61,028 nucleotides of DNA from a virus, in the UHGV virus genome UHGV-0011871; one strand, written 5' to 3'. The translations under genes were made by a program, and so were the position numbers. Of this stretch, positions 12,325 through 28,493 are shown in pieces (position 1 is the first letter of the stretch; the number at the start of each line of letters is the position of its first letter). The notes under the pieces were generated by a model, which had not been told where the DNA came from, did not search any database, and was given only the letters and a program-made list of their open reading frames with translations.

Positions 12325-12341
12325 CTAAACGCCCCCTTATA

Positions 12342-12566: not shown

Positions 12567-13582
12567 TAGACAGTGTAAACGTCTGCGTGGAAGATACGGC
12601 TAGGTTGCTCGATAGTCGGGAAGCCTGCTGCTACCGCTTCGATTACGGAACGGATAGGAGCACGTAAGTCCTCGGCTGTAAGAGCGATACCTGGATTGAA
12701 GTCGTTTTCTACCGTTGGTCCAAGCAAGAATTTGCCGACACCTTCGGATAGCATTACGACACGGTTAACTGGGAAGAACTCGATAGTTTCGTTCTCGCCG
12801 TTAGCAACGTTCTTAACTGTTACTTTACGGTTAGTAACGATGCTTACTGTCGGAAGACCGTAACCGCTAAGTACGGAATCCAATTCGCTGACAGATACAC
12901 GAGTACGTCCAGAACCTCCGCCTGCTGCTTCCGTGATGATTGTCGTATTTTTCAATAGCAACGCTTGAACTTCACGGGACATGTAGATAGCGTCAGGAGA
13001 TTCGCCGTTAGCTGTTTCGTACGCTTGGCTCCATTCCAAAAGATCGCCGATAACATCGTGGCTCTCGTCAGCCCATGTAGACTCAGTAAGAACTACTTTG
13101 TTTTCTGCCGGTACGCCGAAATCAACGTTAACTTCGATGCCGTGTTTCTTGTAAGTGAACTCGCCTTTAGCAAGTGCCTCCATTTTGATAACGTGAATAC
13201 GACGATTCAACGCTTCAACTAGCTGAACTGCTTCGAACGTAAGGTTGTCTACCATCGCTTGGGACTCGGCTGTAGAACGGGCTTGGTGCAACGCTAGCAA
13301 TTCCTCTTCGGTTGCTACGTATTTAAGACCCATCTTAGCGATTTCGCCTGCCATGCTAGCGACTTGATTGCGGTCTACTACCGGTGGCTCGGCTCCGTGT
13401 CCGATCATCGCTGCGATGTATTTGTTAGACTTGATAACGTCATATGCGAACTTCGTGCTGAACGTATTTTCGTTCGGTAGGTAACGGTCTGCGAAAGTCT
13501 CTTGTCCTTCCTGTACAGTTGCGTCTACCAATCCAAGTAATGCCGGTTTTTGAAATTCCTCTAAGTGTGTAATACCTGCCAT
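12566..13582 (-). CDS. major capsid protein
   Basis: 338 aa, following the scaffold gene; size and position are typical. Confidence 0.65.
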   Translation of the reverse strand: MAGITHLEEFQKPALLGLVDATVQEGQETFADRYLPNENTFSTKFAYDVIKSNKYIAAMIGHGAEPPVVDRNQVASMAGEIAKMGLKYVATEEELLALHQARSTAESQAMVDNLTFEAVQLVEALNRRIHVIKMEALAKGEFTYKKHGIEVNVDFGVPAENKVVLTESTWADESHDVIGDLLEWSQAYETANGESPDAIYMSREVQALLLKNTTIITEAAGGGSGRTRVSVSELDSVLSGYGLPTVSIVTNRKVTVKNVANGENETIEFFPVNRVVMLSEGVGKFLLGPTVENDFNPGIALTAEDLRAPIRSVIEAVAAGFPTIEQPSRIFHADVYTV

Positions 13583-13638
13583 TTTATATCGTCTCCTTTA
13601 AATTTGTTTTCGTTTATTTTCGTTAAAAATCGTTTGAC

Positions 13639-14013
13639 TTATCGTGCCGGAATGTAACGGATGTTGTCGTTAGCTGCACGGAACTCAGCCGTAGGTGCCT
13701 CAGGCATCTTGTCGACGTATACAGAACCTCGAATGATGATTTCACCAACGATAGTATCGTTTTCGCCATCGTTTACGAAGTCAATATTTAGTACGCCGAA
13801 ATCAGTGTAGCCCGTTAGGTCAGTGCCGTTGAAAGGCTCGAATTTACCGGAAGTCTCGTTACGAGCAACAAGAGTACCAATAGGTACAACGCCTGCGTCG
13901 AATGCTCGAGCGTCCATAGTGCCTCCTACTTCGATAAACTGAACGTGCTCGGATGCTAGGATGTTAATTCCACCTGTGAAACCTGTTTGGCTAGTTTGTA
14001 GATTGTATGCCAT
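13639..14013 (-). CDS. head decoration / capsid-associated protein
   Basis: 124 aa, between the scaffold and the major capsid genes. Confidence 0.3.
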   Translation of the reverse strand: MAYNLQTSQTGFTGGINILASEHVQFIEVGGTMDARAFDAGVVPIGTLVARNETSGKFEPFNGTDLTGYTDFGVLNIDFVNDGENDTIVGEIIIRGSVYVDKMPEAPTAEFRAANDNIRYIPAR

Positions 14014-14046
14014 TATAAATCGTCTCCTTTTCGTATTTATTCGGGG

Positions 14047-14658
14047 TTATTTTTTCCCCTTAATTTTTCCCAATGATTTGAGTCGTTCGTACTGCGCCTT
14101 ACCTTTGTCCTCGAGGTTTTTCTTCTTCGGAACTGCTTTACCGCCGTTGCCCGGATTCGGGTCACCGTATTGCTTCTTCGGTGGGATGTCCGCCTTGAGT
14201 GCGTCTAGCGATGCGTTTAATTCGTCGTCAGACTCACCTTCGATGAACTTGATATATCGTTTAGCTTGTTCTTCTGTATAGCCGGCTTTAACAAGCAACG
14301 ATTCTTTCTTCGCTTGGAGTGCGGTAGCACGTTGAGCCTCTAGGTCTTTTTGCAAAGTCTCGTAAAGGTCTTTGTACTTCTCCTGCTCCAAGAGTCGTTC
14401 ACGCTCGGATTTCTTGCGCTCTTCTTCGAGTGCTTCCTCACGCTTTTTGCGTTCCCTCTCGAGACGTTCCTTTACGATGCGGTCGATGTCCTCCTGAGTA
14501 AACGTTTTTGACTCGCCGTGATTTTCCGGTTCGGCTCCCGTGTCTTTTTCGTCAGGTACGTTGTCAGTAGTTTCATCGTTTGTATCTGTAAGGTCTGCGC
14601 CTTGATCGGAATTACCTTCCGCAAAATGTTGTAAGTTTAATCGTAGTAATTCTTCCAT
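14047..14658 (-). CDS. capsid scaffolding protein
   Basis: Highly charged alpha-helical protein (E/K/R-rich coiled coil) directly upstream of the capsid gene. Confidence 0.6.
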   Translation of the reverse strand: MEELLRLNLQHFAEGNSDQGADLTDTNDETTDNVPDEKDTGAEPENHGESKTFTQEDIDRIVKERLERERKKREEALEEERKKSERERLLEQEKYKDLYETLQKDLEAQRATALQAKKESLLVKAGYTEEQAKRYIKFIEGESDDELNASLDALKADIPPKKQYGDPNPGNGGKAVPKKKNLEDKGKAQYERLKSLGKIKGKK

Positions 14659-14725
14659 TGTTCCTCCGCCTTTCGTGCGTATAAGTTCTCCGTCAGTTTA
14701 ACGACATATCGTAGGTCAGTTACGT

Positions 14726-15151
14726 TTAAGCCTGCGTAGGCCACGGTACTGCGATTGTTTCTCCGTTTGATAACGTGAATGTGATGTTTGTGCCATCGGA
14801 TGTTGCGCCTGTGACGCTTACTCCGTCTGCTCCTTTTGCTCCGGCTGCTCCTGCGTCGCCTTTATCGCCTTTATCGCCTTTCGGGCCTTGTGCTCCGGCT
14901 GGTCCGGCTTCTCCTCGCTGTCCTGTGTCACCTTTCGGTCCGGTGGCTCCCGTTGCTCCACGGTCGCCCTTCGGTCCTTTAAGCGATGCTAGCCATTCTT
15001 GCTCGGTTCCTTCGAATCCATTATCGACTGCGATCTCGTATGCTGATTTTCCTGGGGCACCGCTACCTCCGCCTCCGATAATTCCTCGTTTGTTACTGAA
15101 CATCGGCTTATCTGCCATTTCGTCACCCCCGTTTATTGGTTTTCTCCGCAA
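14726..15151 (-). CDS. collagen-like (Gly-X-Y repeat) protein
   Basis: About 17 uninterrupted G-X-Y triplets ('GPKGDRGATGATGPKGDTGQRGEAGPAGAQGPKGDKGDKGDAGAAGAKGADG'). Confidence 0.6.
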   Translation of the reverse strand: MRRKPINGGDEMADKPMFSNKRGIIGGGGSGAPGKSAYEIAVDNGFEGTEQEWLASLKGPKGDRGATGATGPKGDTGQRGEAGPAGAQGPKGDKGDKGDAGAAGAKGADGVSVTGATSDGTNITFTLSNGETIAVPWPTQA

Positions 15152-15222
15152 TCACAATCCTCGCAAAATGGGCAATTCTCTCTATCGTTGTTCATAAAGC
15201 GCACCTCCTTTGCTTAGTGATA

Positions 15223-17118
15223 TTAGCGTTGTCTCACTTGTACTACGCCGTCTCCACGGCAGTTCTGACATGTTGCGATGTCGCCTTGCTCGATGCTGAT
15301 TACCTGACCGGAACCTCCGCACTCTCCGCACATTTCAACGAGTTCGCCTGCTGAGTTCTTCGGTTGTCCGCCCTGCTCTAGTTGAAGTTCGGCTTCTTTG
15401 GCTGCCGGAGTTAACGGCCCACCGGAAGGCTTCGTATCCTTATCGAGTGGCATGTCGCCACCGTACGGGTCCATCATTTGTTGCATCGCCATGAATTCTT
15501 TATTGATTTCGTCTTGCTTCGCTTTAATGTCCTCAACGCCTAGACGTTTAAGAGCACCTGATTGCGACTCAAGCTGTGCCGTCATTTCTTCGGTTAGCAA
15601 TTCGACAAGTTCCTTACGGTTATCCGGTAGTGGGAATACAAATTTCATTTCTGTTTCGTAGTCCTCGATCTTACGGATAATTTCCTTATCGTAATTGAAC
15701 ATCGATTCTCCGAGACGGGCTTGCAGGTACTTGATTGATTTCTCGTGAAGTTCCTGTAGACCGTACTCCCACGTTAACCAATGCTCTTCGGTATCGCTGA
15801 TAATCTCGTGGAAGAGAATCTGTAATGCGTCTCCGTTAAGTCCGCCGAAGTTTAGTTCCTGAGGAACGATTTGCGGTAAGCCGGAAACCTCGTGCATTGC
15901 GCCCTTGACTCGCATGTACTGGTCTTTGAAGACTGCTCCCCATTTGAAGCCGGATTCGATTTTCGAAATCTGCGGATTCTGTCCGTCTTGGAACCCTCTC
16001 GCTTCAAGTACGGCTCCAGGCGCAATCTGCATTTGATCGGCTGTGCCTTCCGGTGCATTCAGTACCGCAGTCATAGCGAACATTTCGAATTTAAGAGCGT
16101 CGATTGCGTCTTCGTTCATTCGATTGAGAACATCGTTTTGCTCCCGTAGGTTTGCGATCTCGCTGTCCCGAGCGTTTTCCGCCAGTAGGTCGTTTACCTC
16201 GAAGGTTACGACTGGAATGAACGGAATGCCCATCGGTGTATTCGGTTGAATCTGCTCGATTACCTCGAGTTCATCCGCACTGTAAATCGCTTCCTCTACG
16301 TAGCATTGTCGTGATTCCCCTTCGCCATCTAGTCTGAACGTTTGCTTACGGAATGCTTCGACTTCCTCTCCGCCATCTTCGACCATCATTTGACGGATGA
16401 AGTGACATGCGACCATTTCCTCGAAGTCGTCGTCCGAGTAAACCGGAAAGAACTCCGTGTCAGGTCGGAATAGCCATCGTAGCTTCCCTGTATTCGGATT
16501 AAAGACGATTTTACATACGACTCTATCTGCGATTAACCGGTCCCTAGCTGCTTGCAATAGCTTCGAACGCATCTTGTTCTCACGCCATAGCTGATGAAGA
16601 ATCTTTTCGTATCCTTCCGCAATTCGGTCGGCTTCCATTTGCTTCGTTGCTGTTTCGTCTGACATCGCATTAATAGGCGCTGTCGTCGCTTGTGAGCCGT
16701 TTAAGCCCGTTTGGCTAGGCTGACCTTCGGGAACCCCTTCCGTCTGTTCTGCCGCCATCCTGAGGGCTTCTGAGCCGTCCTCCTCTACGACTTTCTTACG
16801 AGGCACCGCAATTGAGTGTTTTCCACCCATCTGCCAACGTGCTTTTCGATTGATAATCGCTTTGAAGTAGTTTGTAGCGTAACGGGTCGGGTCATATTCG
16901 AGTCCTGGCGGTCTATCCAATTCGGATGCGTGAACCAATTCGCCGTTCTCGTTTCTGTGCTGTTTACCGGAATAATACTCGTAGTTCTCGAACTGAGTCT
17001 GTAGTCTTGCGACTGTTTCTTCGCCCAGGGCAATTTCCCACGGCGAGAATAACAATTCGTCCATGTCTTCCGGTGCCATAAGGTTGTAATCGGCTGTGAA
17101 CTTTTCAAAACGTCCCAT
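15223..17118 (-). CDS. portal protein with C-terminal CxxCxGxG zinc-finger extension
   Basis: 631 aa, immediately downstream of TerL. C-terminal 'CGECGGSGQV...CQNCRGDGVV'. Confidence 0.65.
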   Translation of the reverse strand: MGRFEKFTADYNLMAPEDMDELLFSPWEIALGEETVARLQTQFENYEYYSGKQHRNENGELVHASELDRPPGLEYDPTRYATNYFKAIINRKARWQMGGKHSIAVPRKKVVEEDGSEALRMAAEQTEGVPEGQPSQTGLNGSQATTAPINAMSDETATKQMEADRIAEGYEKILHQLWRENKMRSKLLQAARDRLIADRVVCKIVFNPNTGKLRWLFRPDTEFFPVYSDDDFEEMVACHFIRQMMVEDGGEEVEAFRKQTFRLDGEGESRQCYVEEAIYSADELEVIEQIQPNTPMGIPFIPVVTFEVNDLLAENARDSEIANLREQNDVLNRMNEDAIDALKFEMFAMTAVLNAPEGTADQMQIAPGAVLEARGFQDGQNPQISKIESGFKWGAVFKDQYMRVKGAMHEVSGLPQIVPQELNFGGLNGDALQILFHEIISDTEEHWLTWEYGLQELHEKSIKYLQARLGESMFNYDKEIIRKIEDYETEMKFVFPLPDNRKELVELLTEEMTAQLESQSGALKRLGVEDIKAKQDEINKEFMAMQQMMDPYGGDMPLDKDTKPSGGPLTPAAKEAELQLEQGGQPKNSAGELVEMCGECGGSGQVISIEQGDIATCQNCRGDGVVQVRQR

Positions 17119-17142
17119 TCGCTCAACTCCTTTCGTTTATTT

Positions 17143-18759
17143 TTATCTTGCTCGTTTCCTCGTCGTTCGGATTACTGCGTTTCCTTGCTGTGCCGTTGCG
17201 TATCCCATTTGTACCGCATCGGGACCGTCGTCGTGTTTATGCATCGGATACATTTCGAACTGCTCGATCAGCTTCCGATCGATGTTACGATTGAACCGTA
17301 GCTTACCGCTTTGAACGTCCGGCAGCATCGATTCGATACGCAGTGCCTTACGAGTACGTTGTTTTATCTGCTTGATACGTGTATGGCTCGGGTAGCCGTG
17401 CGCTTGTAAGCCCTCCGCCAACTTGTCAGCGATAAACTCCTGTGCGAACTGTGCCTCGATGCCGATACCTTCGTATTGATATTTCATCGTATAATCGATT
17501 ACCTTCTGAATGAGGATGTCGGGATGAACCCGTTCCATGTATATGTCCCACACGTAATACTTGCCAGTATCGAGGTTCCTCACAATCGTAGCGATAACCG
17601 AGTAGTCACCTGCCTGCTTACCCATCGCAATATCGATACCTGCGTAAAAACGTAAGTTAGCGTGTTTCAATTCCTCAGGGTCGAACCATTCGAAGTATTC
17701 CGGCTTGAAGACCTGACGTTCCTCGTCCGTTGGGTTATTTTGGTATTCTTGGTTGAACATCTTCGCACCGTTTTCCTCACGGATAACGATAAACTCGTAG
17801 TATGACCAATAGCCGGGCCACAAGATTTCCGTACCCTTCAACATTTCCTCTTCGTTTTCCTCGTAGAATGCCCGAGCGTCGTCGGCTGCTGTTTTCGAAT
17901 CAGACCGATAAATCTTACGCCATTGTTCCCACAAGTCCTCACGTTCTGAAAACGAGGTTACCGCCGACATTTTACGAGATTCGAAGTCTCGCCGTTCTTC
18001 GATTACATAATGTAGTAGCGAGCCGAAACATAGGATTGTTCCGAGGTAAATACAGATACCTTCCTTCGACATCGCCGGTAGCATTTCCTCACGGAACCAC
18101 GCTTTGTTCTTCTCGATCAATACCGGAGTATTAGTCGACTCTTTCGATTCCAAGTCGTCGAGAATGAACATGTCCGGTCGAGTATCGCCGTGTCGCAAGC
18201 CCCTCGTTTGCGTTCCTAACCCTTTCGCTTCCACTTTCGTATCAGTCGTCGTAATGAACTCGTATTTGTTATCAAGTTCGTTCATTGACGGCTTGACATG
18301 CAAGATTTCACCGTAGTCGGCTCGTAGCTTTTCGTTTAATTTCAGTTGGTACTTGCCCCACGAAATGAAGTCGCCTGCTACGTCGGTAGTTTCCGAGAAC
18401 AATACGATGTAACGCTTTGCCCTGTACACGATTTGATGCACGAGGAATATGTTCGAAATCCATGCGGTCTTTGCGTGTCTACGAGGTACGGCCCAAGCTA
18501 CGTTTTTCTTCTGCCTGCCGGTCATGATGTCGTTGAACAATTCGCAAAGTTCCTTGTGTATCCATGCTGCGTTAGCTACGTTGACACCCTCAGGAATCAA
18601 GTTACTCGGATTGCCTGGGTTACCATCGTCCGAGAAATACGTCATTCCGAAGTAGAGAACGTCGTGCTCCCCACGATGGATGCGTTCTACCTGCTCGATC
18701 TCGTCTAACACGTCCTCTAATCGAATGAGGTCGGCATCTACCGCTTGACCTGACTTCAT
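17143..18759 (-). CDS. terminase large subunit
   Basis: 538 aa, with an N-terminal ATPase region and a C-terminal nuclease-like region containing acidic motifs. Sits between TerS and the portal. Confidence 0.8.
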   Translation of the reverse strand: MKSGQAVDADLIRLEDVLDEIEQVERIHRGEHDVLYFGMTYFSDDGNPGNPSNLIPEGVNVANAAWIHKELCELFNDIMTGRQKKNVAWAVPRRHAKTAWISNIFLVHQIVYRAKRYIVLFSETTDVAGDFISWGKYQLKLNEKLRADYGEILHVKPSMNELDNKYEFITTTDTKVEAKGLGTQTRGLRHGDTRPDMFILDDLESKESTNTPVLIEKNKAWFREEMLPAMSKEGICIYLGTILCFGSLLHYVIEERRDFESRKMSAVTSFSEREDLWEQWRKIYRSDSKTAADDARAFYEENEEEMLKGTEILWPGYWSYYEFIVIREENGAKMFNQEYQNNPTDEERQVFKPEYFEWFDPEELKHANLRFYAGIDIAMGKQAGDYSVIATIVRNLDTGKYYVWDIYMERVHPDILIQKVIDYTMKYQYEGIGIEAQFAQEFIADKLAEGLQAHGYPSHTRIKQIKQRTRKALRIESMLPDVQSGKLRFNRNIDRKLIEQFEMYPMHKHDDGPDAVQMGYATAQQGNAVIRTTRKRAR

Positions 18760-18895
18760 GAGCGCTAAGAGTAAGTCTCGCTCCTCTCGAAGCTGTTCGA
18801 GGTACTCAGCACGTTCGTTGTAGCCGAGCCATTTTTTATCACCGTTGCTGTCCGTGATTAATGCGATAGTAACCGCCTCCCTTCGAATTTAGTCG

Positions 18896-19330
18896 TTAGT
18901 TATCGTTTGCTTTGTTAATACGTTCCAGTAGCGCTGCCTTACGCTCTTCGAACGAAAGATCGCCACCGTTATTGATCGTTACCTCAGTATGCGTATCTAG
19001 GTCGCCAATACGCTTCAAGTAAACCTCGATGCCCCTTACCGAGCCACGCTCGATGGAGTCGATTAGTTTCTTGTAAACTAGCGCAAGGTGCGAATCCATG
19101 AACTCACTCGCTAAATAGTTCTTGTAGTTAATGAAGTTCGAATCCTTCGTATCCCAGTTATGCAATGTCTTCCGGCTGACACCGAGTTCTTCTGCGATTG
19201 CTTCCTTAGTCTTGCGTTGCCCTTTCGGCGTAAACTCGTATTCTACTAATGCTATCGCTGCTTCTCGTTGCTTCGGTAAGAACTTAGATTCATCGTATTT
19301 AAAGTTATGTTTGTTGCTCACGTTGTCCAC
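18896..19330 (-). CDS. terminase small subunit (HTH)
   Basis: 144 aa with an HTH ('EAIAEELGVSRKTLHNWDTKD'). It is the first gene of the structural operon, adjacent to a repeat-rich non-coding region. Confidence 0.6.
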   Translation of the reverse strand: MDNVSNKHNFKYDESKFLPKQREAAIALVEYEFTPKGQRKTKEAIAEELGVSRKTLHNWDTKDSNFINYKNYLASEFMDSHLALVYKKLIDSIERGSVRGIEVYLKRIGDLDTHTEVTINNGGDLSFEERKAALLERINKANDN

Positions 19331-19570
19331 CTCCTCGTTTTAATTTCGTACACTGCTTCGCCACCGTGGAACATGCGCCCCTTGACGTAAATTAATACGC
19401 CATGTTATCGTATGTATGTAAAATCCTCACGTAATGCCCATCGATTGCCCACCGTATTGCCCTCTCGTGGTCGACCCCGACCTTTGAAAATTTTGTAGGA
19501 ATTTTTCGGACACCCGGCAGCACGGGCGCAGGCTCGATATACCCCCGGGGGTTCACAAACCCAGTAATAC

Positions 19571-20300
19571 CAACGGTTTGACCCGTTTCCAGGCGTTTCC
19601 AACTAGCCATAAACTACGTTATGTAAACTAGACCGGAATGCCTCGAAGTGGCTTCGGCCTTACAGCCCCAACGGTTGCAGCCGTTTGCCCACCGAATCAT
19701 AATAACTTCCCATTGCGTATATACCCCTACCATACGGGACTATCGTACTATATCCGACACTATGCCCGAGTCAATACGTATACCCCCAATATCTGACGGA
19801 TGCCCGTCTGCTGAACGGTTTGCCCGATGTTTTGGCGTACATGACCGAGTGCCTATAGCGTACTCATACCATGCCCTGTACGTTGCCTATACGTGTAATA
19901 CCGTATACCGTATACCCTATCGATGCCCAAACGTCTTTTTTCGCCTTTAATAGAAGGAACTGGCACGGATACAACGAAGATCGACTATATATAACGTTAC
20001 ACAATCGCTGATATACCAACGGTTTAACACGTTTATATCGAGTGTTATTTATCGCTTATTTACTTGTGTTTTCTAGGTTGTCTATTGATACGAGCGAAGC
20101 GAAGTATAGTCTCTTATATACGTTGTTACCGTTGTATATACGTTAATACGTGTACAACCGTTGTCCCCGTTGACTTCTCAATATATAGTGGGACTACGCC
20201 GGTAAAATATAACCTATGGAACGAAAAAACTTTTTATTTTCGTAAAAAACGTGTAAAAACCCCGTCATATCAACGTTTGCAGCGTTTCATAAAACGTCGA
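19571..20300. repeat. dispersed AACGGTTT-N4-CGTTT repeats in the non-coding region upstream of terS
   Basis: Copies at 19571-19600, 19669-19690, 20017-20037, 20156-20175 and 20269-20300. Related copies at 196-262 and 60993-61020. Confidence 0.5.
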
Positions 20301-20439
20301 TCTTCGATGAAAAACGAAATAAAACGAAATTAATACTTGCAATCGAAAGTACACGGTTATATAATTGCATTAGCCAGTTAGGAACGGCACGGAAACGATG
20401 CCTACCGACACGGCAACGAAAAAGAATTTTCGAAAGTTG

Positions 20440-20469
20440 TTGACACGGTTTAAGAGTCGATGCTATACT
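20440..20469 (+). promoter_or_regulatory. early promoter P1 (TTGACA-N18-TATACT)
   Basis: The -35 is TTGACA at 20440-20445 and the -10 is TATACT at 20464-20469, with an upstream A-tract. Confidence 0.6.
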
Positions 20470-20543
20470 GAAAAGGAATCAGCGACACGGCACGGTAAAC
20501 GTCAGTCGGGTTGTAACGATTCAAAAATAGTTTTAAAAAGTTG

Positions 20544-20573
20544 TTGACACGAAGAATGAGTCGATGCTACAAT
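20544..20573 (+). promoter_or_regulatory. early promoter P2 (TTGACA-N18-TACAAT)
   Basis: -35 at 20544-20549 and -10 at 20568-20573. Shares the spacer motif CGAAGAATGAGTCGATGC. Confidence 0.6.
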
Positions 20574-20662
20574 AAAAGGGAATCAACGGCTGTACGGCTT
20601 GCTAGTACGATTGAGTTCGGAAACCTACCGAAACGGCTGAAAAAAGATTGTCGAAAAAGTAG

Positions 20663-20692
20663 TTGACACGAACAATGAGTCAATGATACAAT
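20663..20692 (+). promoter_or_regulatory. early promoter P3 (TTGACA-N18-TACAAT)
   Basis: -35 at 20663-20668 and -10 at 20687-20692. Confidence 0.6.
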
Positions 20693-20770
20693 GAAAGAGT
20701 CGAAGGCAAGCCGGATGCAGAAGCCGGAAACCCGACACGGATAACGACTTGAAAGTTTTTTAAAAAGTAG

Positions 20771-20800
20771 TTGACACGAAATTAGTGTCATGGTAAACTA
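20771..20800 (+). promoter_or_regulatory. early promoter P4 (TTGACA-N18-TAAACT)
   Basis: -35 at 20771-20776 and -10 at 20795-20800. Confidence 0.5.
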
Positions 20801-21156
20801 AGGTTACAACGTCACACAAGCCAAGCGAAGCAAGGTCACAACGTCACTAAGTTTCGATCTTTGACATAACCCTATATTCGGACTCTATCGAAGTGCTGAA
20901 TCCGACGACGAAAACAAGCGAACCCGCACGTTAACAAACGAGTGGCAAGCGGTAACTAGTCGACTACTACCCGAATGGATAGGCACTACTAAATCGTCCT
21001 TTATCGATAGCATGTTAAGCGAAGCGGAACCTTAAAGGTTGCGGTGACGGGCGGTAAAAAACCCCGAGCGACGGACTAAGGCTGAACAGATTTCGTGAAC
21101 ATGAAGTGCTTACCTCGTCTTTAAGCGAATGGGCTTACGAAAGGAGGGTCGATCTT

Positions 21157-21246
21157 ATGCAAAATAAGCGGATTTTTTACCTTGGGACTCGTGTATCAAT
21201 CGTAGTTAAGTCGAAGAACAAACGAAGAGGAGTGATAAACTGGTAA
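21157..21246 (+). CDS. possible leader peptide (29 aa) in the early leader
   Basis: A strong RBS (AAGGAGGG) sits 9 nt upstream of the ATG. Not in the ORF track (<60 aa). Confidence 0.25.
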   Translation: MQNKRIFYLGTRVSIVVKSKNKRRGVINW

Positions 21247-21337
21247 CGATACATCAAGCGGTTACATAACTAATCTATCGGATACCCCATTCGTTTAAAG
21301 ATGCGGTAAGTAAACATAAAATATGGAGGCGATACCT

Positions 21338-21565
21338 ATGAACAAACTAGAAGAACGAGTATTTGCAGCGTGTGCATGGAATCAAGCGAATGACAGCAAC
21401 GGTGAATTCCTGGAATTGTGGGCGGAGTATATCCGAGAGGAACTGACAATCGTACTACTAATAGACATCGTAAACAATGCGACAATGCAGGCATACGAGG
21501 ACTTATACACAAGCGGAAACATTGCGGATGCGAACGAAGTCAAAAAATATATCGTGGAGGTATGA
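21338..21565 (+). CDS. hypothetical early protein
   Basis: The ATG at 21338 has an RBS (TGGAGGCG); first gene of the early operon. Confidence 0.5.
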   Translation: MNKLEERVFAACAWNQANDSNGEFLELWAEYIREELTIVLLIDIVNNATMQAYEDLYTSGNIADANEVKKYIVEV

Positions 21566-21569
21566 GAAA

Positions 21570-21824
21570 ATGGAAAAACGGGAAGTGGTAGCGGTAATAA
21601 CGGTGACAAACGTATCGGCGGTGCTTATATACGAAGCCGAAAGCGACTATGTAGTAGCATCGTTGGCAGTAGGTGACTCGATTGACGAGCCGGAGACATA
21701 CGAGATTCAATACGAGTTACCCGAGGACGCAGACGAAGAGGACGAAGACATCGAATACGAGCCGGTATTCTACATGGGTGAATGGCGGATGTCACTGAAC
21801 CACGCAATGAGAGTACAAAGGTAG
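21570..21824 (+). CDS. hypothetical acidic early protein
   Basis: ATG at 21570 after a GGAGG; the protein is very acidic ('PEDADEEDEDIEYEP'). Confidence 0.5.
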   Translation: MEKREVVAVITVTNVSAVLIYEAESDYVVASLAVGDSIDEPETYEIQYELPEDADEEDEDIEYEPVFYMGEWRMSLNHAMRVQR

Positions 21825-21916
21825 CCACGCTGACGAGTCCTAGCGAGGACGAAACGGTCGACAAGACCGTCCGTGGATAGGTACCACGAACATTATACGA
21901 TAAGGGGACGATATAC

Positions 21917-22489
21917 ATGATTAGCGTAGCACTTACAAACTTAGGAAAATACAACGAAGGGACATTGGATTACGTATGGCTAGACTTACCGGCAACTGAC
22001 GAAGATATTGCGGAGGCATTCAAAACTATCGGAGTAGCTGACGGCACCGAATACGAGGAACATTTCTTGAGCGACTGGGACGCACCGGACTTCTTCGAAG
22101 TGGGTCAGTACTCGAGCGTGACAAAACTCAACGAATTAGCTGCAAAACTGGCGGAGATCGACGGCTTGGAGTCTATCTTTGACGGGACATACGAAGCAGG
22201 CGACATCGTAAACCTAGCCCACGAACTGGAAGCACAAGGACATATTCAAGATGCACACGACTATGTCGGGGACATCGTTTCAGACGAAGAACTTGACGAA
22301 ATGGTAAGACATGAGGCGGAATCAGGCGGATGGCAACGTGTGGCACACTTCCTAGACGGAATCAAATACATGTCGGAGGACTACTACTACATTAACGGAT
22401 ACGCAAACGCTGAGAACTTGTCGCAAGTCACGCTCGATGCAATCGTAGACGACATGATGAACGAAATAAAACGCAACTTAGAGGTATAA
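21917..22489 (+). CDS. ardA: ArdA-like anti-restriction protein (DNA mimic)
   Basis: The N-terminal 'LGKYNEGTLDYVWLDLPATDEDIAEAF...EEHFLSDWDAPDFF' matches the ArdA signature (KYN.G.L.G.WLDL ... D.EF ... F.DWEG.P). The protein is highly acidic. Confidence 0.7.
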   Translation: MISVALTNLGKYNEGTLDYVWLDLPATDEDIAEAFKTIGVADGTEYEEHFLSDWDAPDFFEVGQYSSVTKLNELAAKLAEIDGLESIFDGTYEAGDIVNLAHELEAQGHIQDAHDYVGDIVSDEELDEMVRHEAESGGWQRVAHFLDGIKYMSEDYYYINGYANAENLSQVTLDAIVDDMMNEIKRNLEV

Positions 22490-22584
22490 CAGGAGGCTTC
22501 CTGCCTCTTGCCGGACATCCGAAACGCTCGGGTACTCGGCAAGCGTTGGGAGGCGCTTATTAACTACGAAGGAGTGGAAACGAG

Positions 22585-22836
22585 ATGAACGAACTGACAA
22601 TAGTTGAGGAACTCGAGGACTTAGGTGTGCATGACGTGGAGGTCGAAAGCGTGGACGGTCACGCTGTTTACTACTACGGGATTCAATATGGAGTGCCTCA
22701 CGAATACAAGGCGGTAAGGTGCGACATGGCAGACGGTATCGAAATTTACCATCGGCATGAAGGCATGGAGGATTGGTACTACATGGTATTCATTGAAGAC
22801 GAAAACACTGAGGAGGACGATTGGGAATGGGAATGA
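22585..22836 (+). CDS. hypothetical acidic early protein
   Basis: 83 aa with an RBS (AAGGAGTGG). The C-terminus is 'EEDDWEWE'. Confidence 0.5.
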   Translation: MNELTIVEELEDLGVHDVEVESVDGHAVYYYGIQYGVPHEYKAVRCDMADGIEIYHRHEGMEDWYYMVFIEDENTEEDDWEWE

Positions 22837-23054
22837 TTAGCTGCGAATTCAAGACGGCACAAGAGGCGATTAGATACGCTCAGTCACACGGAGGATGGCT
22901 TTACTATCGATTGGAGGACGGTCACACGTTTTGGCACTGTCCGAGGACGTACATGATGCATGAAATTCTGCGGAAACATGCAGGCTCTGGCTACTGTAGT
23001 GCGTGGGTTGGTATGGAAGAATACGTAAACAATTTGGAGGCGAAATTATTATGA
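22827..23054 (+). CDS. hypothetical early protein
   Basis: ATG 10 nt after an AGGAGG; overlaps the upstream stop. Confidence 0.45.
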   Translation: MGMISCEFKTAQEAIRYAQSHGGWLYYRLEDGHTFWHCPRTYMMHEILRKHAGSGYCSAWVGMEEYVNNLEAKLL

Positions 23055-23587
23055 AAACAATCGTAAAAACATTCGAGGTATTCGAACTAAGCGAACTGAA
23101 AGGCGTGAACTACCGCAATGCGTTAGATGCGGTATCACGTCAGGCGTCCGAAGATTGGGCAGAATTTGAATCATACGAGTTGCTCGAGTCACTGAAAGAA
23201 TCTGCGGAACATTTCGGAATGAAAGTGACGGACTATTCCATCGGACTCTATGATCGATCTTACGTAAAAGTTGAGACAGGATACTTCGAAGAGGAACAGG
23301 CGGAACATGCAGTACAATGGATTGCGGATAACTACAAGGAAGGTGCGGACGGTACGTGTCCTTTCACTGGCGTATACTTCGATTGCTTCTTCTTCGACTA
23401 CTTCGTTAAGAACGGAGTACCAACGGAGGACAACGTCAAGGACGAGATTGTACGGGCAATCGGTTACATGCTCGAGACAGCCGTTGACAATGCCGAAAAA
23501 GATATGATGGACGATGACAGCCTATTGGACTACGCAATCAGCAATGAACTTTCTTTCTTATCAGACGGTGCAATTTATCACGGGTAA
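23051..23587 (+). CDS. hypothetical acidic early protein
   Basis: ATGA overlap with the upstream gene; RBS (GGAGGCG); 178 aa, acidic. Confidence 0.5.
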   Translation: MKTIVKTFEVFELSELKGVNYRNALDAVSRQASEDWAEFESYELLESLKESAEHFGMKVTDYSIGLYDRSYVKVETGYFEEEQAEHAVQWIADNYKEGADGTCPFTGVYFDCFFFDYFVKNGVPTEDNVKDEIVRAIGYMLETAVDNAEKDMMDDDSLLDYAISNELSFLSDGAIYHG

Positions 23588-23615
23588 CTGACACGAATTA
23601 TGAGTCGAATAAAAT
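23587..23615 (+). promoter_or_regulatory. internal early promoter P5 (CTGACA-N17-TAAAAT)
   Basis: Same family as P1-P4: 'CTGACACGAATTATGAGTCGAATAAAAT'. Confidence 0.45.
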
Positions 23616-23632
23616 AATCGGAGGCGGTAACA

Positions 23633-24085
23633 ATGAAAAAACAAAGATACTTTATACGAATCAAAGACGGCACACTTGGCGGAGAACGTGGACACATTTA
23701 CAAAGAGGCGACAAACGTCTTCCTTCCCGATGGCTTCGTAGCTTACACGAATGAATACAGTACGATGCCGGACGCTATCGAAGTGCATCCGGCAGACGAA
23801 CTCAGGGTAATTACGGCAGACCAATACAACCGAATTGCTGCCTGTGTCATGGAAGGTGTCGAAGCCGGACACGAAATCAAGGCGGTCATGGTTGCGGTAG
23901 AAGCCGAGGACAAAATCCTCGATAAAGTGGCGGAGTTTAAACGGGTAGCATCCGAGTTATACAGCCTGTGGGAACCCATTCCCTTCGCCTCTCCGGTTAA
24001 TCAACTACTAACCGATACGTACCCATTCGACAAGGATTTCCAGGAGGTTCTCGATGAAATTTGCAGGTGGGGAAATCGTAAGTAA
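23633..24085 (+). CDS. hypothetical early protein
   Basis: RBS (GGAGGCGG). Confidence 0.5.
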   Translation: MKKQRYFIRIKDGTLGGERGHIYKEATNVFLPDGFVAYTNEYSTMPDAIEVHPADELRVITADQYNRIAACVMEGVEAGHEIKAVMVAVEAEDKILDKVAEFKRVASELYSLWEPIPFASPVNQLLTDTYPFDKDFQEVLDEICRWGNRK

Positions 24086-24165
24086 TGCACGGGACTCCCG
24101 TCCCTTGTCTTGCGTCTGCTACGGCAGGCTCGAGCCAAGCGTTGGGAGGCGCTGAGAAATAATTG

Positions 24166-24194
24166 TTGACACGATATACGAGTCGTGATAATAT
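24166..24194 (+). promoter_or_regulatory. internal early promoter P6 (TTGACA-N17-TGnTAATAT, extended -10)
   Basis: 'TTGACACGATATACGAGTCGTGATAATAT' has the same -35-proximal 'TTGACACGA' and the 'GAGTCG' spacer core as P1-P5. Confidence 0.55.
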
Positions 24195-24228
24195 GTATTC
24201 AAGCGATCATAAACGAGGAGGAAACGAA

Positions 24229-24699
24229 ATGAAAAACGAAATGTACACTAGAGGGGTATTTACACCAACGGCACACGTTATCTGCTACAACTGCCACGAC
24301 ACAAGTTACAGACCATCCGATAAATTGGCGGACTCAAGCAAGCGACCATTGCAGGAAGGTAACGGGGTTACAAAGTGCGACATGTGCGGAACTGACATCC
24401 AGTTAGACTCAAGCGTAGCCGAGGAACATAATCTAGTAGCCGAGTTTAAAGCGCTAGGATTCGATGCGGTAATGGCACAAACTGGCGGTATGAATAGTGC
24501 ATGTGAGATTAATACGAAGGTTGAAGACGGTAAAATTATCGAATGGGTATCGATAACATTCGACTACTGCGGAGACTCGGAGTATGCAGCCTTGCACATT
24601 CTCGAGGAAGGCGACGACTGGGAGGACATCGTTTGTACTACGGACAAGGCGGAGTTTATGAAAGCTATCACGGAATTCGTGACGAAGGAGGAAAAGTAA
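24229..24699 (+). CDS. zinc-ribbon early protein
   Basis: ATG after a GGAGGAAACGAA RBS; CxxC ... CxxC. Confidence 0.5.
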   Translation: MKNEMYTRGVFTPTAHVICYNCHDTSYRPSDKLADSSKRPLQEGNGVTKCDMCGTDIQLDSSVAEEHNLVAEFKALGFDAVMAQTGGMNSACEINTKVEDGKIIEWVSITFDYCGDSEYAALHILEEGDDWEDIVCTTDKAEFMKAITEFVTKEEK

Positions 24700-25208
24700 T
24701 GATACTGAAAAGGTTTTATATAGACGGAATTGACGATAGCAACGCATTTTGGGGTTACTCAGTAGGCAAAACGTGGAACGGATGGGCGATGCCTTTGTTC
24801 TTGAAGGAACAAGCCGACAAGGTTGCGGAAGCATTCACCGCACAAGGCGATACTGTTACGTACAATCCACAAACGGATTCATTCATCGTATTACTGGACG
24901 GTGCTGACGAGTATGAAGTATTCAAAGGTGTCGAGATTGACGGGACAACGTACTACCCTATCGGAGCAGGCTCGTGGATATGGGACGAAGAGTACACGAA
25001 AGGCGAAGAACTTCGGGACTTCCGTAAGCATATGTACCATTCGGTCGAAACACTGCAAGACGAACTGGCCAGGCACGGGGACTACGATAACAGGTTCGAT
25101 CTTCACATCGAGTTAAACGGAAAACGTATATCACTGGAAATGTGTGCGGACTTGTACCATCGTTTAGGGAAATTCATTGACGAAACTATCGAGGAGGAAA
25201 GCGAATAA
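24699..25208 (+). CDS. hypothetical early protein
   Basis: TAATG overlap with the upstream gene; RBS (AGGAGGAAAAG). Confidence 0.5.
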   Translation: MILKRFYIDGIDDSNAFWGYSVGKTWNGWAMPLFLKEQADKVAEAFTAQGDTVTYNPQTDSFIVLLDGADEYEVFKGVEIDGTTYYPIGAGSWIWDEEYTKGEELRDFRKHMYHSVETLQDELARHGDYDNRFDLHIELNGKRISLEMCADLYHRLGKFIDETIEEESE

Positions 25209-25483
25209 TGAAAGCGAATCTGACAGCGTTTGGAATGCCAATACTGACGGGCCTACTGCTCGTCGGTCTTTGGATGAACGCACCGGACAGTGGGACGGAA
25301 TGCACCACGGCAGACTACGCTCACATCCCGTATGCCGAGTCTTTTGACTTCCGGTGTACCGAAGACACTATGACGGTTTACAATGCGGAGACGAGCGATG
25401 TAATAGCGACTGAGGCACGATGCAAAACGAACGAAGTTAAAGCCGAAGACGGCACATGTGTACCTGAGGACTTCTACGAATAA
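25208..25483 (+). CDS. small secreted / lipoprotein-like early protein
   Basis: N-terminal signal-like hydrophobic segment; four Cys. Confidence 0.45.
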   Translation: MKANLTAFGMPILTGLLLVGLWMNAPDSGTECTTADYAHIPYAESFDFRCTEDTMTVYNAETSDVIATEARCKTNEVKAEDGTCVPEDFYE

Positions 25484-25502
25484 ACGAAACGAGGCGATAA
25501 CA

Positions 25503-25691
25503 TTGTTAGTATTACTATTTTGGTTCCTCGGTGTTCCGGCAATCATATCGGTGATATGTACCCCGTGGAGAGGTTCCGACTTCCTAATTATGAGCCGGAT
25601 TAAAGCCGTATTCGAATATACAACGGTAGTAATGATGCTCGTAGGATTTATCATGATACTAGGATACTTTGAAGCAAATATGAGAGGATGA
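25503..25691 (+). CDS. small membrane protein
   Basis: TTG start after a GAGGCG; two TM helices. Confidence 0.35.
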   Translation: MLVLLFWFLGVPAIISVICTPWRGSDFLIMSRIKAVFEYTTVVMMLVGFIMILGYFEANMRG

Positions 25692-25697
25692 TAGACG

Positions 25698-26021
25698 ATG
25701 GCAATGAGTAAACGGGACTATGCGGAGTTACTGCGTGACGCTTCGCAATCGATGATGGACGTTGTTAAGGCGATAGACAAACTGTACTATGACGTAGAGC
25801 CACTGGACGACTATAAGGAGTTTGAAGACGAATTGAATCAGACGGCTAAGAGTGCGATTGAGGACGCAATCAACGTACGTCAGATGTTCAAGCGACTAAT
25901 CACACTCGAGGACTTAGCGTTGAAAGTCGATGCAGTAGCCGATCACCTGCATTTAAGTGCCGGAGAAAACGAATACAACGGCGAACTGGACACGGGAATA
26001 CCGTGGAAGAACGAAGATTGA
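25698..26021 (+). CDS. hypothetical early protein
   Basis: RBS (GAGAGGA). Confidence 0.45.
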   Translation: MAMSKRDYAELLRDASQSMMDVVKAIDKLYYDVEPLDDYKEFEDELNQTAKSAIEDAINVRQMFKRLITLEDLALKVDAVADHLHLSAGENEYNGELDTGIPWKNED

Positions 26022-26118
26022 CGGGCATGTCTCCCGTCCCTTGTATAGCATCCGAGCCACCCGTTCGGACGTTATCCAAGCGTTAGGAGACGCTTATAAA
26101 ACACGAGGAGGAATCGTA

Positions 26119-26409
26119 ATGACAACGACTACTAAACAGGAAGCATTTATCACGGAACTTCGCCTGACTGCGATAGCTTTGCAGAAAGCAATCCCGACTA
26201 TGGATGAACTGAACGGGAGATTGTACGAACTGACTCACGAATACGAGCACGAAGTCAATCGGCTTCCCGAGCATGACGAGCAACTGATTCTCGAAGCAAA
26301 GGAAATGTTCATGAACCTTCCGGTGTGGTCAACAATGACAGACGTAGCTAACGGACTTGTCGATCTTGTCAACGATTTAGAAGCGAAGCAAGGCGAAGGC
26401 AAGCAATGA
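26119..26409 (+). CDS. hypothetical early protein
   Basis: ATG after a CGAGGAGGAATCG. Confidence 0.45.
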   Translation: MTTTTKQEAFITELRLTAIALQKAIPTMDELNGRLYELTHEYEHEVNRLPEHDEQLILEAKEMFMNLPVWSTMTDVANGLVDLVNDLEAKQGEGKQ

Positions 26410-26615
26410 CACTAGCCGATAAGATACGGGCACAAGCACGGGTTAAGGCGGTCGAGATACCGCCCCCTGGGGCTACCCAACGATGCAAAGACGCACTAGA
26501 CACGTACTTTTTCGGAGGGACACCGTGCAAGTCCGATGCCTTATGGTTCTACGGATTCGCTACGTTAGCCCTCGTAACAATAATTTTACTCGGCACGATT
26601 AACGTGCTATTATAG
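26406..26615 (+). CDS. small membrane protein
   Basis: ATGA overlap with the upstream gene; C-terminal TM helix. Confidence 0.4.
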   Translation: MTLADKIRAQARVKAVEIPPPGATQRCKDALDTYFFGGTPCKSDALWFYGFATLALVTIILLGTINVLL

Positions 26616-26618
26616 GAG

Positions 26619-26876
26619 GTGACATGCATTATGGGAGTGAAACAATTGATTCAATCTAACCTGAAAGAACTGTTACACGCTAGACGGCTGACGATTCGTG
26701 AGTTCTCACGTATGATCGACTACCGATTCGAGTCTGTACGTCAACTGTATAACAACGAATCCAAGCAGGTTCCGCTAGCCCTAGTCGAACGGGTTTGTTT
26801 GGAACTTCGCATAACTCCGGGCGAACTATTCACGGTGATAGACGCTAACGGAGAGGCAATACAACCGAAGCACTAA
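26619..26876 (+). CDS. XRE-family HTH transcriptional regulator
   Basis: 'LTIREFSRMIDYRFESVRQLYNNESKQVPLALVERVCLELRITPGELF' is a typical HTH_3 fold; RBS (AGGAGGTG). Confidence 0.6.
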   Translation: MTCIMGVKQLIQSNLKELLHARRLTIREFSRMIDYRFESVRQLYNNESKQVPLALVERVCLELRITPGELFTVIDANGEAIQPKH

Positions 26877-26903
26877 ATCATACGAACAAACGGAGGGGAA
26901 ACG

Positions 26904-27080
26904 ATGCAAGAGTACATGATAGGAACGCATAAGTTCGAATGTAACGATGAAACCGAGGCGTTACGTATAGCAAAGCGTACCATGTTCGAAAAAGGATGGC
27001 GCAATCTTCGCTTATTGCGAAAAGAAACTGACGGATGGAACGTATGCCAAGTGATACCTAGCTTCAATACTAATCGATAA
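26904..27080 (+). CDS. hypothetical small protein (58 aa)
   Basis: Not in the ORF track. RBS (GGAGGGG), 4 nt spacer, then ATG. Confidence 0.35.
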   Translation: MQEYMIGTHKFECNDETEALRIAKRTMFEKGWRNLRLLRKETDGWNVCQVIPSFNTNR

Positions 27081-27102
27081 AAACAAAAGGGGAGAAAACA
27101 AA

Positions 27103-27681
27103 ATGGCAAAAGCAGAAAAAGTAAAGAAACCGTTCTACAAAAAATGGTGGGTATGGGTACTCGCAATTATCGTTATAGCTGCATTCGCAGGTGGTGGCGA
27201 GGAAGCCGAGGAAACATCCACGTCCAATCAAACGAACCAAAAAGAGGAAAAAGCGAGTAAGAAAGAGGAAGTCGTAGGCATGGGCGAAGCGATTAAAGTC
27301 GGTGACGTTGTATTCACGGTACACGGCAAGGAAACAGCGAAGACAATCGGCGATCAATACGTAGGGCAAGACGCACAAGGAACGTATCTAATACTCGATG
27401 TCACGGTTAAGAACGAAGGCAAAGAAGCGATAACAACCGATTCATCGTTCTTCAAACTGAAAGCAGGCGAATCGACTTACGACTCAGACGGGACAGCCGA
27501 CATGTATATCAACGATGCAAACAATATGTTCTTCCTCGCTAAAGTAAATCCAGGCAACGAGACACGAGGCAAGATAGCATTCGATGTCAACGATGCAGTT
27601 ATCAACGCTACTGATACGGTAGTCAACGTACAAACGGGTGCCTTCGGTACCGAACAAGCGCAAATTAAAATCGCTGAATAA
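27103..27681 (+). CDS. DUF4352-like membrane-anchored protein
   Basis: N-terminal TM helix followed by a beta-rich domain with 'VGDVVFTVHG...YLILDVTVKNEGKEA...', resembling DUF4352. Confidence 0.5.
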   Translation: MAKAEKVKKPFYKKWWVWVLAIIVIAAFAGGGEEAEETSTSNQTNQKEEKASKKEEVVGMGEAIKVGDVVFTVHGKETAKTIGDQYVGQDAQGTYLILDVTVKNEGKEAITTDSSFFKLKAGESTYDSDGTADMYINDANNMFFLAKVNPGNETRGKIAFDVNDAVINATDTVVNVQTGAFGTEQAQIKIAE

Positions 27682-27693
27682 CGCAAAAAAAAT

Positions 27694-27727
27694 GCCCTCC
27701 GTCCAATCGACGGGGGCTTTCTTCTTA
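27694..27727. terminator. bidirectional rho-independent terminator
   Basis: 'GCCCTCCGTCcaatcGACGGGGGC' hairpin flanked by an A8 run upstream and TTTCTTCTT downstream, between convergent genes. Confidence 0.65.
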
Positions 27728-27745: not shown

Positions 27746-28171
27746 TCACCAACTATTATGAAACGACCTAGTATTCGGTGTGTAGTCCGTTCCATCGGTC
27801 GCTACGTTGACACCGTGAGTGATTGGCACTTCGTACGTAACTACTCCTGCCTTGTTCTTCTTACGCTCGGAGCCTTGCGTACGTACCTTGTACATTCTCT
27901 CGGACATTATCGGGTACTCCTCGAGCGTCATTTTGTCAGGATGTGAGTCTGATAATTCTTCGTGCAGAATCACGTTAGCCAGTCGCTCAAGCAACGGCCC
28001 GTCAGGTGTTTTTCCCGTCTGCTCTACGTATGCATCCGTCAAATCTTCGACCATTTGCATACGGGCATCCCGAGGAACCTCACCTACGGACTGTTCTAGT
28101 TGCTGTACGTACTCTTCCATTCTCGACTTATAGTTAACACCAAAGCTGTATTGATTAGTTGACATATTCAA
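27746..28171 (-). CDS. hypothetical protein
   Basis: 141-aa ORF; last gene of the leftward replication-module transcripts. Confidence 0.4.
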   Translation of the reverse strand: MNMSTNQYSFGVNYKSRMEEYVQQLEQSVGEVPRDARMQMVEDLTDAYVEQTGKTPDGPLLERLANVILHEELSDSHPDKMTLEEYPIMSERMYKVRTQGSERKKNKAGVVTYEVPITHGVNVATDGTDYTPNTRSFHNSW

Positions 28172-28493
28172 GCGCCTCCCACTCTTCGTATATGTTCGCG
28201 ATCTTCTTTATTGCAGTTGCTACGTGCTTTGTAATCATTGGCTGACTAACTCCCATACGTTGGGCGGTATCCTCTTGACCTAAGTCATAACGGAAATATA
28301 GCGACAAGGCTTCACGCTGCTTATCCGTCAAGTCAGCCAGTTCGATTGCACGGTCAAGCGTCATTAACTCGTCGGCTAGGTGCCACTTACCTGCGTACAT
28401 TTTCTTCTCATTTAAATCCTCGTAACCTTCTAGTAATGCTTTTACATAAATCTCGTGTTTTGTTAATGTCATTGACAACGGACTTCCTCTCAT
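28155..28493 (-). CDS. ArpU/sigma-region-4-like transcriptional regulator
   Basis: 'LTDKQREALSLYFRYDLGQEDTAQRMGVSQPMITKHVATAIKKI' is a sigma-70 region-4 / ArpU-type HTH. Confidence 0.5.
   Translation of the reverse strand: MRGSPLSMTLTKHEIYVKALLEGYEDLNEKKMYAGKWHLADELMTLDRAIELADLTDKQREALSLYFRYDLGQEDTAQRMGVSQPMITKHVATAIKKIANIYEEWEALEYVN

Follow-up and report, generated by a model that had tools for sequence, protein, structure and literature searches.

The 61,028-nucleotide (nt) virus genome UHGV-0011871, the whole of which is referred to here as the window, carries four tandem sigma-A promoters (P1 to P4) at the head of a plus-strand early operon and two further copies (P5 and P6) inside that operon. 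In every promoter copy of the window, a 17-bp dyad, GACWCG-N5-CGWGTC, overlaps the -35 hexamer and the spacer. The dyad recurs in related phages and tracks a subfamily of small helix-turn-helix (HTH) proteins of the XRE type, one of which, 81 aa long, is encoded near the 3' end of the early operon. These sequence patterns make it likely that the 81-aa protein is a repressor that occludes the -35 hexamer of every early promoter and autoregulates the early operon. Coordinates are collected in Table 1.

A promoter scan of the window, with sites scored by hexamer matches out of 12, agreed with the first-pass annotation in finding four tandem near-consensus promoters; P1 to P4 scored 10 or 11 and follow one another at start-to-start spacings of 104, 119 and 108 bp. 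The A-tract noted upstream of each was also found, as an A-tract/T-tract/A-tract series of the type known from upstream promoter (UP) elements; these tracts are lacking at P5 and P6. All six sites have the hexamers (near TTGACA/TATAAT) and the spacers (16–18 nt) of sigma-A promoters, but the 18-nt spacer ascribed to P1 to P4 is found in P1 to P3 only (17 nt in P4, 16 in P5, 17 in P6). Repeat finding placed P1 to P6 in one family. The description of P5 and P6 as family members inside the early operon stood as far as the common motif is concerned, while their location proved to be two short intergenic gaps (23588-23632 and 24086-24228) and not genes; a terminator-like hairpin at 24089-24104 precedes P6. 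The sequence TTGACACGA-N5-GAGTC, with at most two mismatches allowed, occurs seven times in the window against 0.73 expected, a count reached in 0 of 100 shuffles, and six of the seven copies lie on the plus strand between 20440 and 24184. The array reads as one regulatory cassette amplified in tandem, composed of a putative UP element, TTGACA, an extended -10 TG and TAnAMT. Since MerR-type activators need over-long spacers, such an activator is unlikely at near-consensus promoters with spacers of 16–18 nt.

Relatives were traced by searches with ArdA and with the small terminase followed by contig look-ups. This led to nine syntenic genomes, namely an IMG/VR contig (L007), two Joint Genome Institute metagenome contigs (L089 and L092), four Logan assemblies (L094, L096, L097 and L098) and prophages in a 2.4-Mb contig of Rossellomorea marisflavi (L091; GCA_900166615.1) and a 1.2-Mb contig of Aeribacillus composti (L093; GCA_052906345.1). 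Their small terminase proteins are 64–86% identical to that of the window. Between its small terminase gene and the divergent early operon, each of the nine has two to five tandem sigma-A promoters at spacings of 78–137 bp, and internal intergenic copies are present in most. Two colinear terminase relatives (L095 and L099) are without the early operon and without the array, and no HTH_26 gene or dyad was seen in them. The leftward promoter at 19774 of the window was not found in the closest relatives.

As the first-pass annotation had suggested, the related arrays were aligned (31 promoters from eight phages), and the spacer positions proved conserved though the DNA between the promoters had diverged. 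Spacer positions 1 (C), 2 (G) and 9 (G) are kept in 30, 26 and 28 of the 31 promoters, respectively, about as often as the hexamer bases, and an A-rich run occupies positions 4–7. A/T tracts are visible as conserved columns 5' of the -35, R-T-G stands directly before the -10, the first transcribed bases are purine-rich, and information content falls to near zero outside -45 to +15. The ATG with which the spacer ends corresponds to the extended -10 TG (-15/-14), present in 27 of the 31. An RTG before the -10, the -16 region of Gram-positive promoters, is a known sigma-A contact. The view that the spacer is conserved beyond the needs of sigma-A was thus upheld for the right half of the dyad but not for the TG, which belongs to ordinary sigma-A recognition.

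Recent tandem duplication had been offered as an alternative in which P1 to P4 are young copies whose spacers are read by no second factor. P1 and P2 are indeed 79% identical over 66 nt, reaching past the -10, and P2 and P3 are 89% identical over 44 nt; within-phage likeness also exceeds between-phage likeness in several relatives, as with GAGAC in L007 and GTATC in L096. However, the same positions are kept in ten phages in which inter-promoter DNA is at about zero information, and P5 and P6 have just the consensus positions in common with P1 to P4. Since the spacer is kept between phages otherwise diverged, recent duplication alone cannot explain its conservation. The dyad, found at one gap only, apart from promoters, and upstream of the HTH gene in unrelated contigs (see below), also speaks against it. 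Duplication is therefore contradicted as the sole explanation, and in that form we consider it very improbable.

Other searches gave little beyond these genomes. No DNA similarity to known phages was found with positions 19500-23500 as the query, and a search with protein 23051-23587 gave no relatives. The nearest cultured phages by large terminase, phBC6A51 and PHBA67-T, have the structural module alone in common with the window and no divergent early operon. One true relative came out of two-copy pattern scans of public viral and genome contigs; the remaining matches, including L001 (a coding repeat) and L086 from Cytobacillus (a 60-bp tandem repeat), were due to chance. An independent assembly of apparently the same phage (L088, ENA, 61083 bp), whose small terminase is 99% identical to that of the window, ends about 1.4 kb upstream of the small terminase gene, at a point estimated to lie inside the promoter array. 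An assembly break at the repeated cassettes, rather than a true genome end, would fit this position.

The conserved spacer forms the right half of the dyad, whose half-site centres are 11 bp apart; the left half consists of the final four bases of the -35 hexamer plus CG. Across 32 promoters from eight phages, dyad symmetry appears at a gap of 5 alone, with a mean of 3.7 of 6 matches compared with 0.3–1.6 at gaps 1–4 and 6–9, and a position-weight scan scored identical sites on both strands. An ACACG-N10-CGTGT palindrome was dropped in favor of the gap-5 dyad, the sole gap showing symmetry. Dyads with at least 11 of 12 matches number nine in the 61-kb window as opposed to three in 931 kb of control loci. 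Seven of the nine are in promoters (P1 to P6 and the leftward 19774 promoter), P4 being the most symmetric of the array copies. The other two, both 11/12, fall within coding sequence at 21675-21691 (open reading frame (ORF) 21570-21824) and 60222-60238 (the integrase gene), against a chance expectation of about 0.2 per whole window; they may be extra repressor sites or relics. Left-half copies like CGACACGG were also read from the sequence at about 20407 and 20483.

The placement of the dyad varies in the relatives. In the upstream promoters of L089, L094 and L098, the equivalents of a window promoter that carries no dyad (P0), it is displaced downstream by 6 bp and covers the spacer and the -10. 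L091 has a perfect dyad at 8855 with neither -35 nor -10, and two more, at 7022 (12/12) and 6383 (11/12), in internal intergenic gaps without a standard -35. Judged by these placements, the dyad is separable from the promoter. The alternative that the CG after the -35 and the central spacer form an intrinsic promoter-strength element, read by RNA polymerase or setting DNA shape, draws on the sigma-A-optimised remainder of the cassette (UP element, -35, TG and -10) and on the sigma-A contact at the RTG of the spacer 3' end. It predicts neither dyad symmetry nor a register shifted over the -10 nor promoter-less copies, and absence of the dyad beside homologues with a different recognition helix would not be expected of it either; we regard it as unlikely.

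The earlier proposal that a second factor reads the spacer of every early promoter is borne out in so far as the dyad is kept in the nine relatives and tracks orthologues of one XRE protein, which points to a DNA-binding partner. Two XRE proteins had been named as candidates. The one encoded in the early operon (26631-26876) has the recognition helix DYRFESVRQL, and each of the eight array-bearing loci extending to the distal early operon has an HTH_26 gene whose helix is kept as RFESVRQLY or a close variant. Co-occurrence was examined in 57 IMG/VR contigs encoding homologues of the protein, with dyads counted at 10 or more of 12 matches within 220 nt upstream of the gene (background, 0.015 dyads per 220 nt) and helix classes partly assigned by reading the sequences. 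Among 29 loci with the helix YRF[ED][ST]VR, 26 have at least one upstream dyad and 23 at least two. In contrast, none of about 22 loci with clearly different helices (DHEYPTVRK of SPbeta/phi3T YopB, EHDYKSVRL and others) has any, and no dyad was found in phi3T. Loci with intermediate helices, placed outside both classes, include L125, L130 and L150 with two to three upstream dyads and L133 (the L007 contig) with one.

The arrangement of these dyads is stereotyped. In all 26 loci with two or more, the proximal dyad lies within the gene's own TTGACA-17-TATAAT-type promoter; the second is inside a back-to-back leftward promoter in 24 of them, and a third, where present, is usually further left. 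Reading of the L122 switch region base by base gave three operators between back-to-back promoters, and the leftward 19774 promoter of the window matches the position of the leftward operator-bearing promoter in switches of this type. The cultured Paenibacillus phage Bloom likewise has three dyads within 85 bp upstream of BLOOM_31 (helix DYRFETIRQL). Such a layout is the signature of a putative autoregulated repressor together with its operators, P1 to P6 correspond to this promoter-plus-operator cassette in amplified form, and the early-operon XRE protein is the likely binder of their dyads. A role as master repressor is favored by the HTH gene being the lone oppositely oriented gene in L122-type prophages and by its overlap with the integrase gene, behind its own promoter, in L098. 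A solved-structure search with the HTH protein returned weak XRE matches only, and a literature search with the half-site sequences gave nothing relevant.

A small SinI-like protein is encoded a few genes upstream of the HTH_26 gene in L089 (3642-3806), L091 (2886-3014) and L092 (4109-4249), and again in L094 (4202-4342) and L098 (2321-2629); no equivalent was identified in the window. Its position hints at an anti-repressor partner of the HTH_26 protein.

The second XRE candidate, encoded at 51523-51747, is a lone gene opposed to its neighbors, which is the classical position of a prophage repressor. Its product, however, shares only 15% identity with the early-operon protein and differs from it in the recognition helix, and its intergenic region holds another repeat, GCCTTACACTTAC, which is absent from the array. 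That this protein binds the early-promoter spacers is thus highly improbable, and of the two candidates only the early-operon protein is retained as the likely binder. The repeat GCCTTACACTTAC has plus-strand copies at 43839-43851, 51343-51355, 51421-51433 and 59564-59576 (three exact, one with a single mismatch) and an inverted degenerate copy at 51371-51383. All copies fall between genes of the minus-strand replication module, two of them in the divergent gap beside the XRE gene, and the repeat probably serves a separate switch as its operator or promoter element.

A host-encoded regulator, for example of sporulation or stress, might instead bind the dyad and couple early transcription to host physiology. 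Some copies weakly resemble the Spo0A box (AGTCGAA versus TGTCGAA, compared by eye and unscored). The Spo0A reading of GAGTCGA was rejected, as the family consensus GAGTCGT matches the 0A box at four of seven positions only; the dyad also shows no evident resemblance to the LexA, CcpA, CodY, CtsR and HrcA sites, and it tracks a phage-encoded HTH subfamily helix by helix. We consider a host regulator improbable. Two other phage proteins were set aside as binders: the sigma70_r4-like protein 28155-28493, which is present in relatives without array or dyad, and the integrase as an MrpR-like dead recombinase repressor, which was rejected on its intact catalytic residues.

The dyads might also act as RNA or DNA hairpins, serving as weak terminators or insulators for leftward transcription. 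A minus-strand T-run, the complement of the UP element, follows each dyad, and a terminator scan flagged the minus strand of P4 (TGACACTAATTTCGTGTCA followed by a T-rich tail). The stems, though, are 5–6 bp long and mismatched in most copies, there is no leftward transcription unit running into the array, and the association with the HTH gene would be left unexplained; this is extremely improbable.

Several observations weigh against repression by the early-operon XRE protein. The right half-sites are degenerate in some relatives (L089 and L093). Conservation of the dyad's left half cannot be told apart from that of the -35 hexamer, nor that of the TG from the extended -10, which leaves the CG, the central A-rich run and CGWGTC as independent evidence. 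By-eye comparison of helix variants with operator variants gave no clean covariation, Ser/Thr variants of the helix being inconsistent with the inner half-site bases. Immediately upstream of the window's HTH_26 gene there is a weak TTTACT-17-TATTAT site but no dyad, so that production of the protein would rely on the very promoters that it is proposed to repress. At 81 aa and with the HTH as the sole domain detected, neither a C-terminal oligomerisation domain nor one for RecA-stimulated self-cleavage being found, it looks more Cro-like than CI-like, and the second lone XRE gene at 51523-51747, with its own repeats, could be the true lysogeny switch. The HTH_26 protein may be either a lysogeny-maintenance repressor or an early shut-off factor.

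In the proposed mechanism, a dimer of the 81-aa XRE/HTH_26 protein would bind each operator and block access of sigma-A to the -35, so that P1 to P4, P5, P6 and probably the 19774 promoter would be repressed together, P5 and P6 acting as internal boosters. About 6 kb separate the array from the repressor gene, which is located close to the 3' end of the operon under its control; this arrangement would create a negative autoregulation loop. In a naive infected cell, which contains no repressor, up to five or six promoters would fire at once to express the ArdA-like and takeover genes; as the repressor accumulated, the early operon would shut itself off. In a lysogen, this loop would keep operon expression low and repress the early promoters of incoming related phages, making immunity probable. 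A more speculative possibility, which we put forward tentatively, is that the array and the distant repressor gene form a burst-and-delay timer, in which transcription distance sets the pulse length and the operator copies act as a sink that sets the immunity threshold. If so, several polymerases would load at entry and produce a pulse of anti-restriction and takeover proteins.

This arrangement involves no new regulatory principle and is a fairly conventional phage on/off switch, copied several times. It nonetheless gives a widespread and uncharacterised subfamily of small phage XRE proteins (helix DYRFESVRQL) a concrete candidate operator, GACWCG-N5-CGWGTC, and points to a stereotyped switch in dozens of Bacillota prophages, cultured Paenibacillus larvae phages among them. 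Tandem amplification of a promoter-operator cassette would be a route to very strong yet fully repressible early control in a temperate phage, and the cassette could find use in Bacillus-type hosts as a strong promoter that is compact and under tight regulation.

Downstream of the array is an untranslated leader of about 350 nt. YAAGCGR repeats, specific to one strand, abound in the leaders of the window (20807-21157) and of L089, L091, L092, L093, L094, L096, L097 and L098. Together, 3.4 kb of leaders contain 60 copies of AAGCG compared with 12.7 expected from the downstream operons, and AGCGG, the Chi sequence of Bacillus subtilis, shows a 6.3-fold enrichment. Of 10 relatives, 9 have the repeats and L007 does not. 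Rfam gave no match in the leader region or anywhere in the window, and the leader folds no better than its shuffles (z = +0.74). An undescribed regulatory RNA or protein-binding element is a possibility for this leader.

Table 1. Features of the window. Promoter scores are hexamer matches out of 12, and dyad scores are dyad matches out of 12.
Feature	Coordinates	Strand	Details
P1 cassette	20415..20469	+	-35 TTGACA at 20440, 18-nt spacer, -10 TATACT; 11/12
P2 cassette	20519..20573	+	-35 TTGACA at 20544, 18-nt spacer, -10 TACAAT; 11/12
P3 cassette	20638..20692	+	-35 TTGACA at 20663, 18-nt spacer, -10 TACAAT; 11/12
P4 cassette	20746..20799	+	-35 TTGACA at 20771, 17-nt spacer, -10 TAAACT; 10/12
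P5, intergenic inside early operon	23588..23615	+	CTGACA, 16-nt spacer, TAAAAT; 10/12
P6, intergenic inside early operon	24166..24194	+	TTGACA, 17-nt spacer, TAATAT; 10/12
P0, sigma-A-like upstream promoter	20337..20365	+	TTGCAA-17-TATAAT; without dyad in the window
Leftward promoter, toward 72-aa ORF and small terminase gene	19747..19774	-	TTGACT-16-TATAGT; carries dyad
P1 dyad	20442-20458		GACACGgtttaAGAGTC; 11/12
P2 dyad	20546-20562		GACACGaagaaTGAGTC; 11/12
P3 dyad	20665-20681		GACACGaacaaTGAGTC; 11/12
Partial dyad without promoter, between P3 and P4	20734..20750		GACACGgataaCGACTT; 10/12
P4 dyad	20773-20789		GACACGaaattAGTGTC; 11/12
P5 dyad	23590-23606		GACACGaattaTGAGTC; 11/12
P6 dyad	24168-24184		GACACGatataCGAGTC; 12/12
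Leftward-promoter dyad	19756-19772		11/12
Structural and packaging genes	~1-19330	-	
Large terminase	17143-18759	-	
Small terminase	18896-19330	-	
Non-coding stretch, 1.8 kb	19331-21157		Between small terminase and early operon
Untranslated leader, ~350 nt	20800..21157	+	Downstream of array; six AAGCG copies
Early operon, ~20 small genes	21158-27681	+	
First early ORF	21158..21247	+	29 aa, basic; read from sequence
ArdA-like anti-restriction gene, early cargo of array	21917..22489	+	PHROG 2059, E = 1.4e-10
Candidate repressor	26631..26876	+	81-aa Cro/C1-type HTH; Pfam HTH_26, E = 8e-11, above curated cut-off
Early operon end, intrinsic terminator-like hairpin and T-run	27696..27725	+	
Tyrosine integrase	59939-60997	-	R, K, HxxR, H and Y residues all intact

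The window is apparently the complete genome of a temperate siphovirus-type phage with a Bacillaceae host. A temperate lifestyle is indicated by the intact catalytic residues of the integrase and by the relatives embedded in the 1.2-Mb and 2.4-Mb bacterial contigs. The early operon contains the ArdA-like anti-restriction gene, the Cro/C1-type HTH gene and a superinfection-exclusion-like gene; the ArdA counterparts of the relatives match Pfam ArdA, and the first early ORF (...SKNKRRGVINW) resembles a small ORF in the leader region of L089 (...SKNKRKGAIQW). The other 32 kb are on the minus strand and encode a C5 methylase, ribonucleotide reductase, family A DNA polymerase, primase, helicase and the tyrosine integrase. 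Convergent to the early operon, the minus-strand gene at 28155-28493 encodes a 112-aa protein consisting of a sigma-70 region 4 domain alone, which is kept in all relatives, including those without an array, and may activate late genes. Adjoining it on the plus strand (28526-28918) is a gene for a conserved 130-aa protein of unassigned function, with its own near-consensus promoter (28472) free of an operator. Short repeats (three copies of ATACCGT as well as CCAACGGTTT-type and ATATACGTT-type repeats) are dense in the non-coding region 19331-20330, which separates the small terminase gene from the array; like repeats recur in L089 (about 8800-9000) and L091 (about 9040-9160), and the region may be a packaging site or a replication origin.

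The array invites comparison with several known systems. The A1, A2 and A3 promoters of the strictly lytic phage T7 are tandem strong promoters for the host polymerase that head the early region in the same orientation. They likewise number at least three, lie little over 100 bp apart and have an anti-restriction gene among their first products, but are not known to carry a repressor operator, whereas P1 to P6 each have one and the window encodes an integrase. The first-pass likening of the array to the early clusters of lytic phages is therefore apt for its three or more strong tandem promoters heading an early operon with an anti-restriction gene downstream; it does not extend to lifestyle or control, given the intact integrase, the integrated relatives and the operator in every promoter. 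At 5087-5400 of L064, an unrelated phage that carries ArdA, three tandem promoters also form an array, with a conserved palindromic spacer of another sequence (TTGACAAATAGTCAA...), so promoter-operator cassettes amplified before anti-restriction operons may be a recurring design. In IncN plasmids, the CUP repeat promoters of the leading region drive a burst of ardA expression on entry, which an element-encoded repressor then shuts off; the likeness is in logic alone, CUP being a plasmid system with unrelated sequences and regulators.

Lambda-type Cro/CI operators are similar in having a 17-bp dyad over the core promoter, several operators per region and a small self-regulating HTH binder. The window differs in that its 81-aa protein is without a C-terminal dimerisation or self-cleavage domain, its operator-promoter unit is present in four tandem and additional internal copies, and the repressor gene is distal in the operon, away from the operators. 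In SPbeta, the SPBRE element is repeated in many early-gene promoter regions, all of which are silenced by one master repressor, MrpR, which resembles a tyrosine recombinase but is catalytically dead (PMC10516654). The window, set beside SPBRE by description, resembles it in that a temperate phage of Bacillus type carries one short element at numerous early promoters. Unlike MrpR, the window's recombinase keeps all its catalytic residues, and the element tracks an XRE protein whose SPbeta-type homologues (YopB type) have a different helix and no dyad. The stoperators of mycobacteriophages L5 and L1 (PMC1934351) are comparable in their many sites per genome and in an early-promoter site that overlaps the -35. 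However, stoperators are asymmetric, orientation-dependent and scattered in transcribed DNA, while the sites of the window are symmetric and seven of the nine strong copies lie in promoters.

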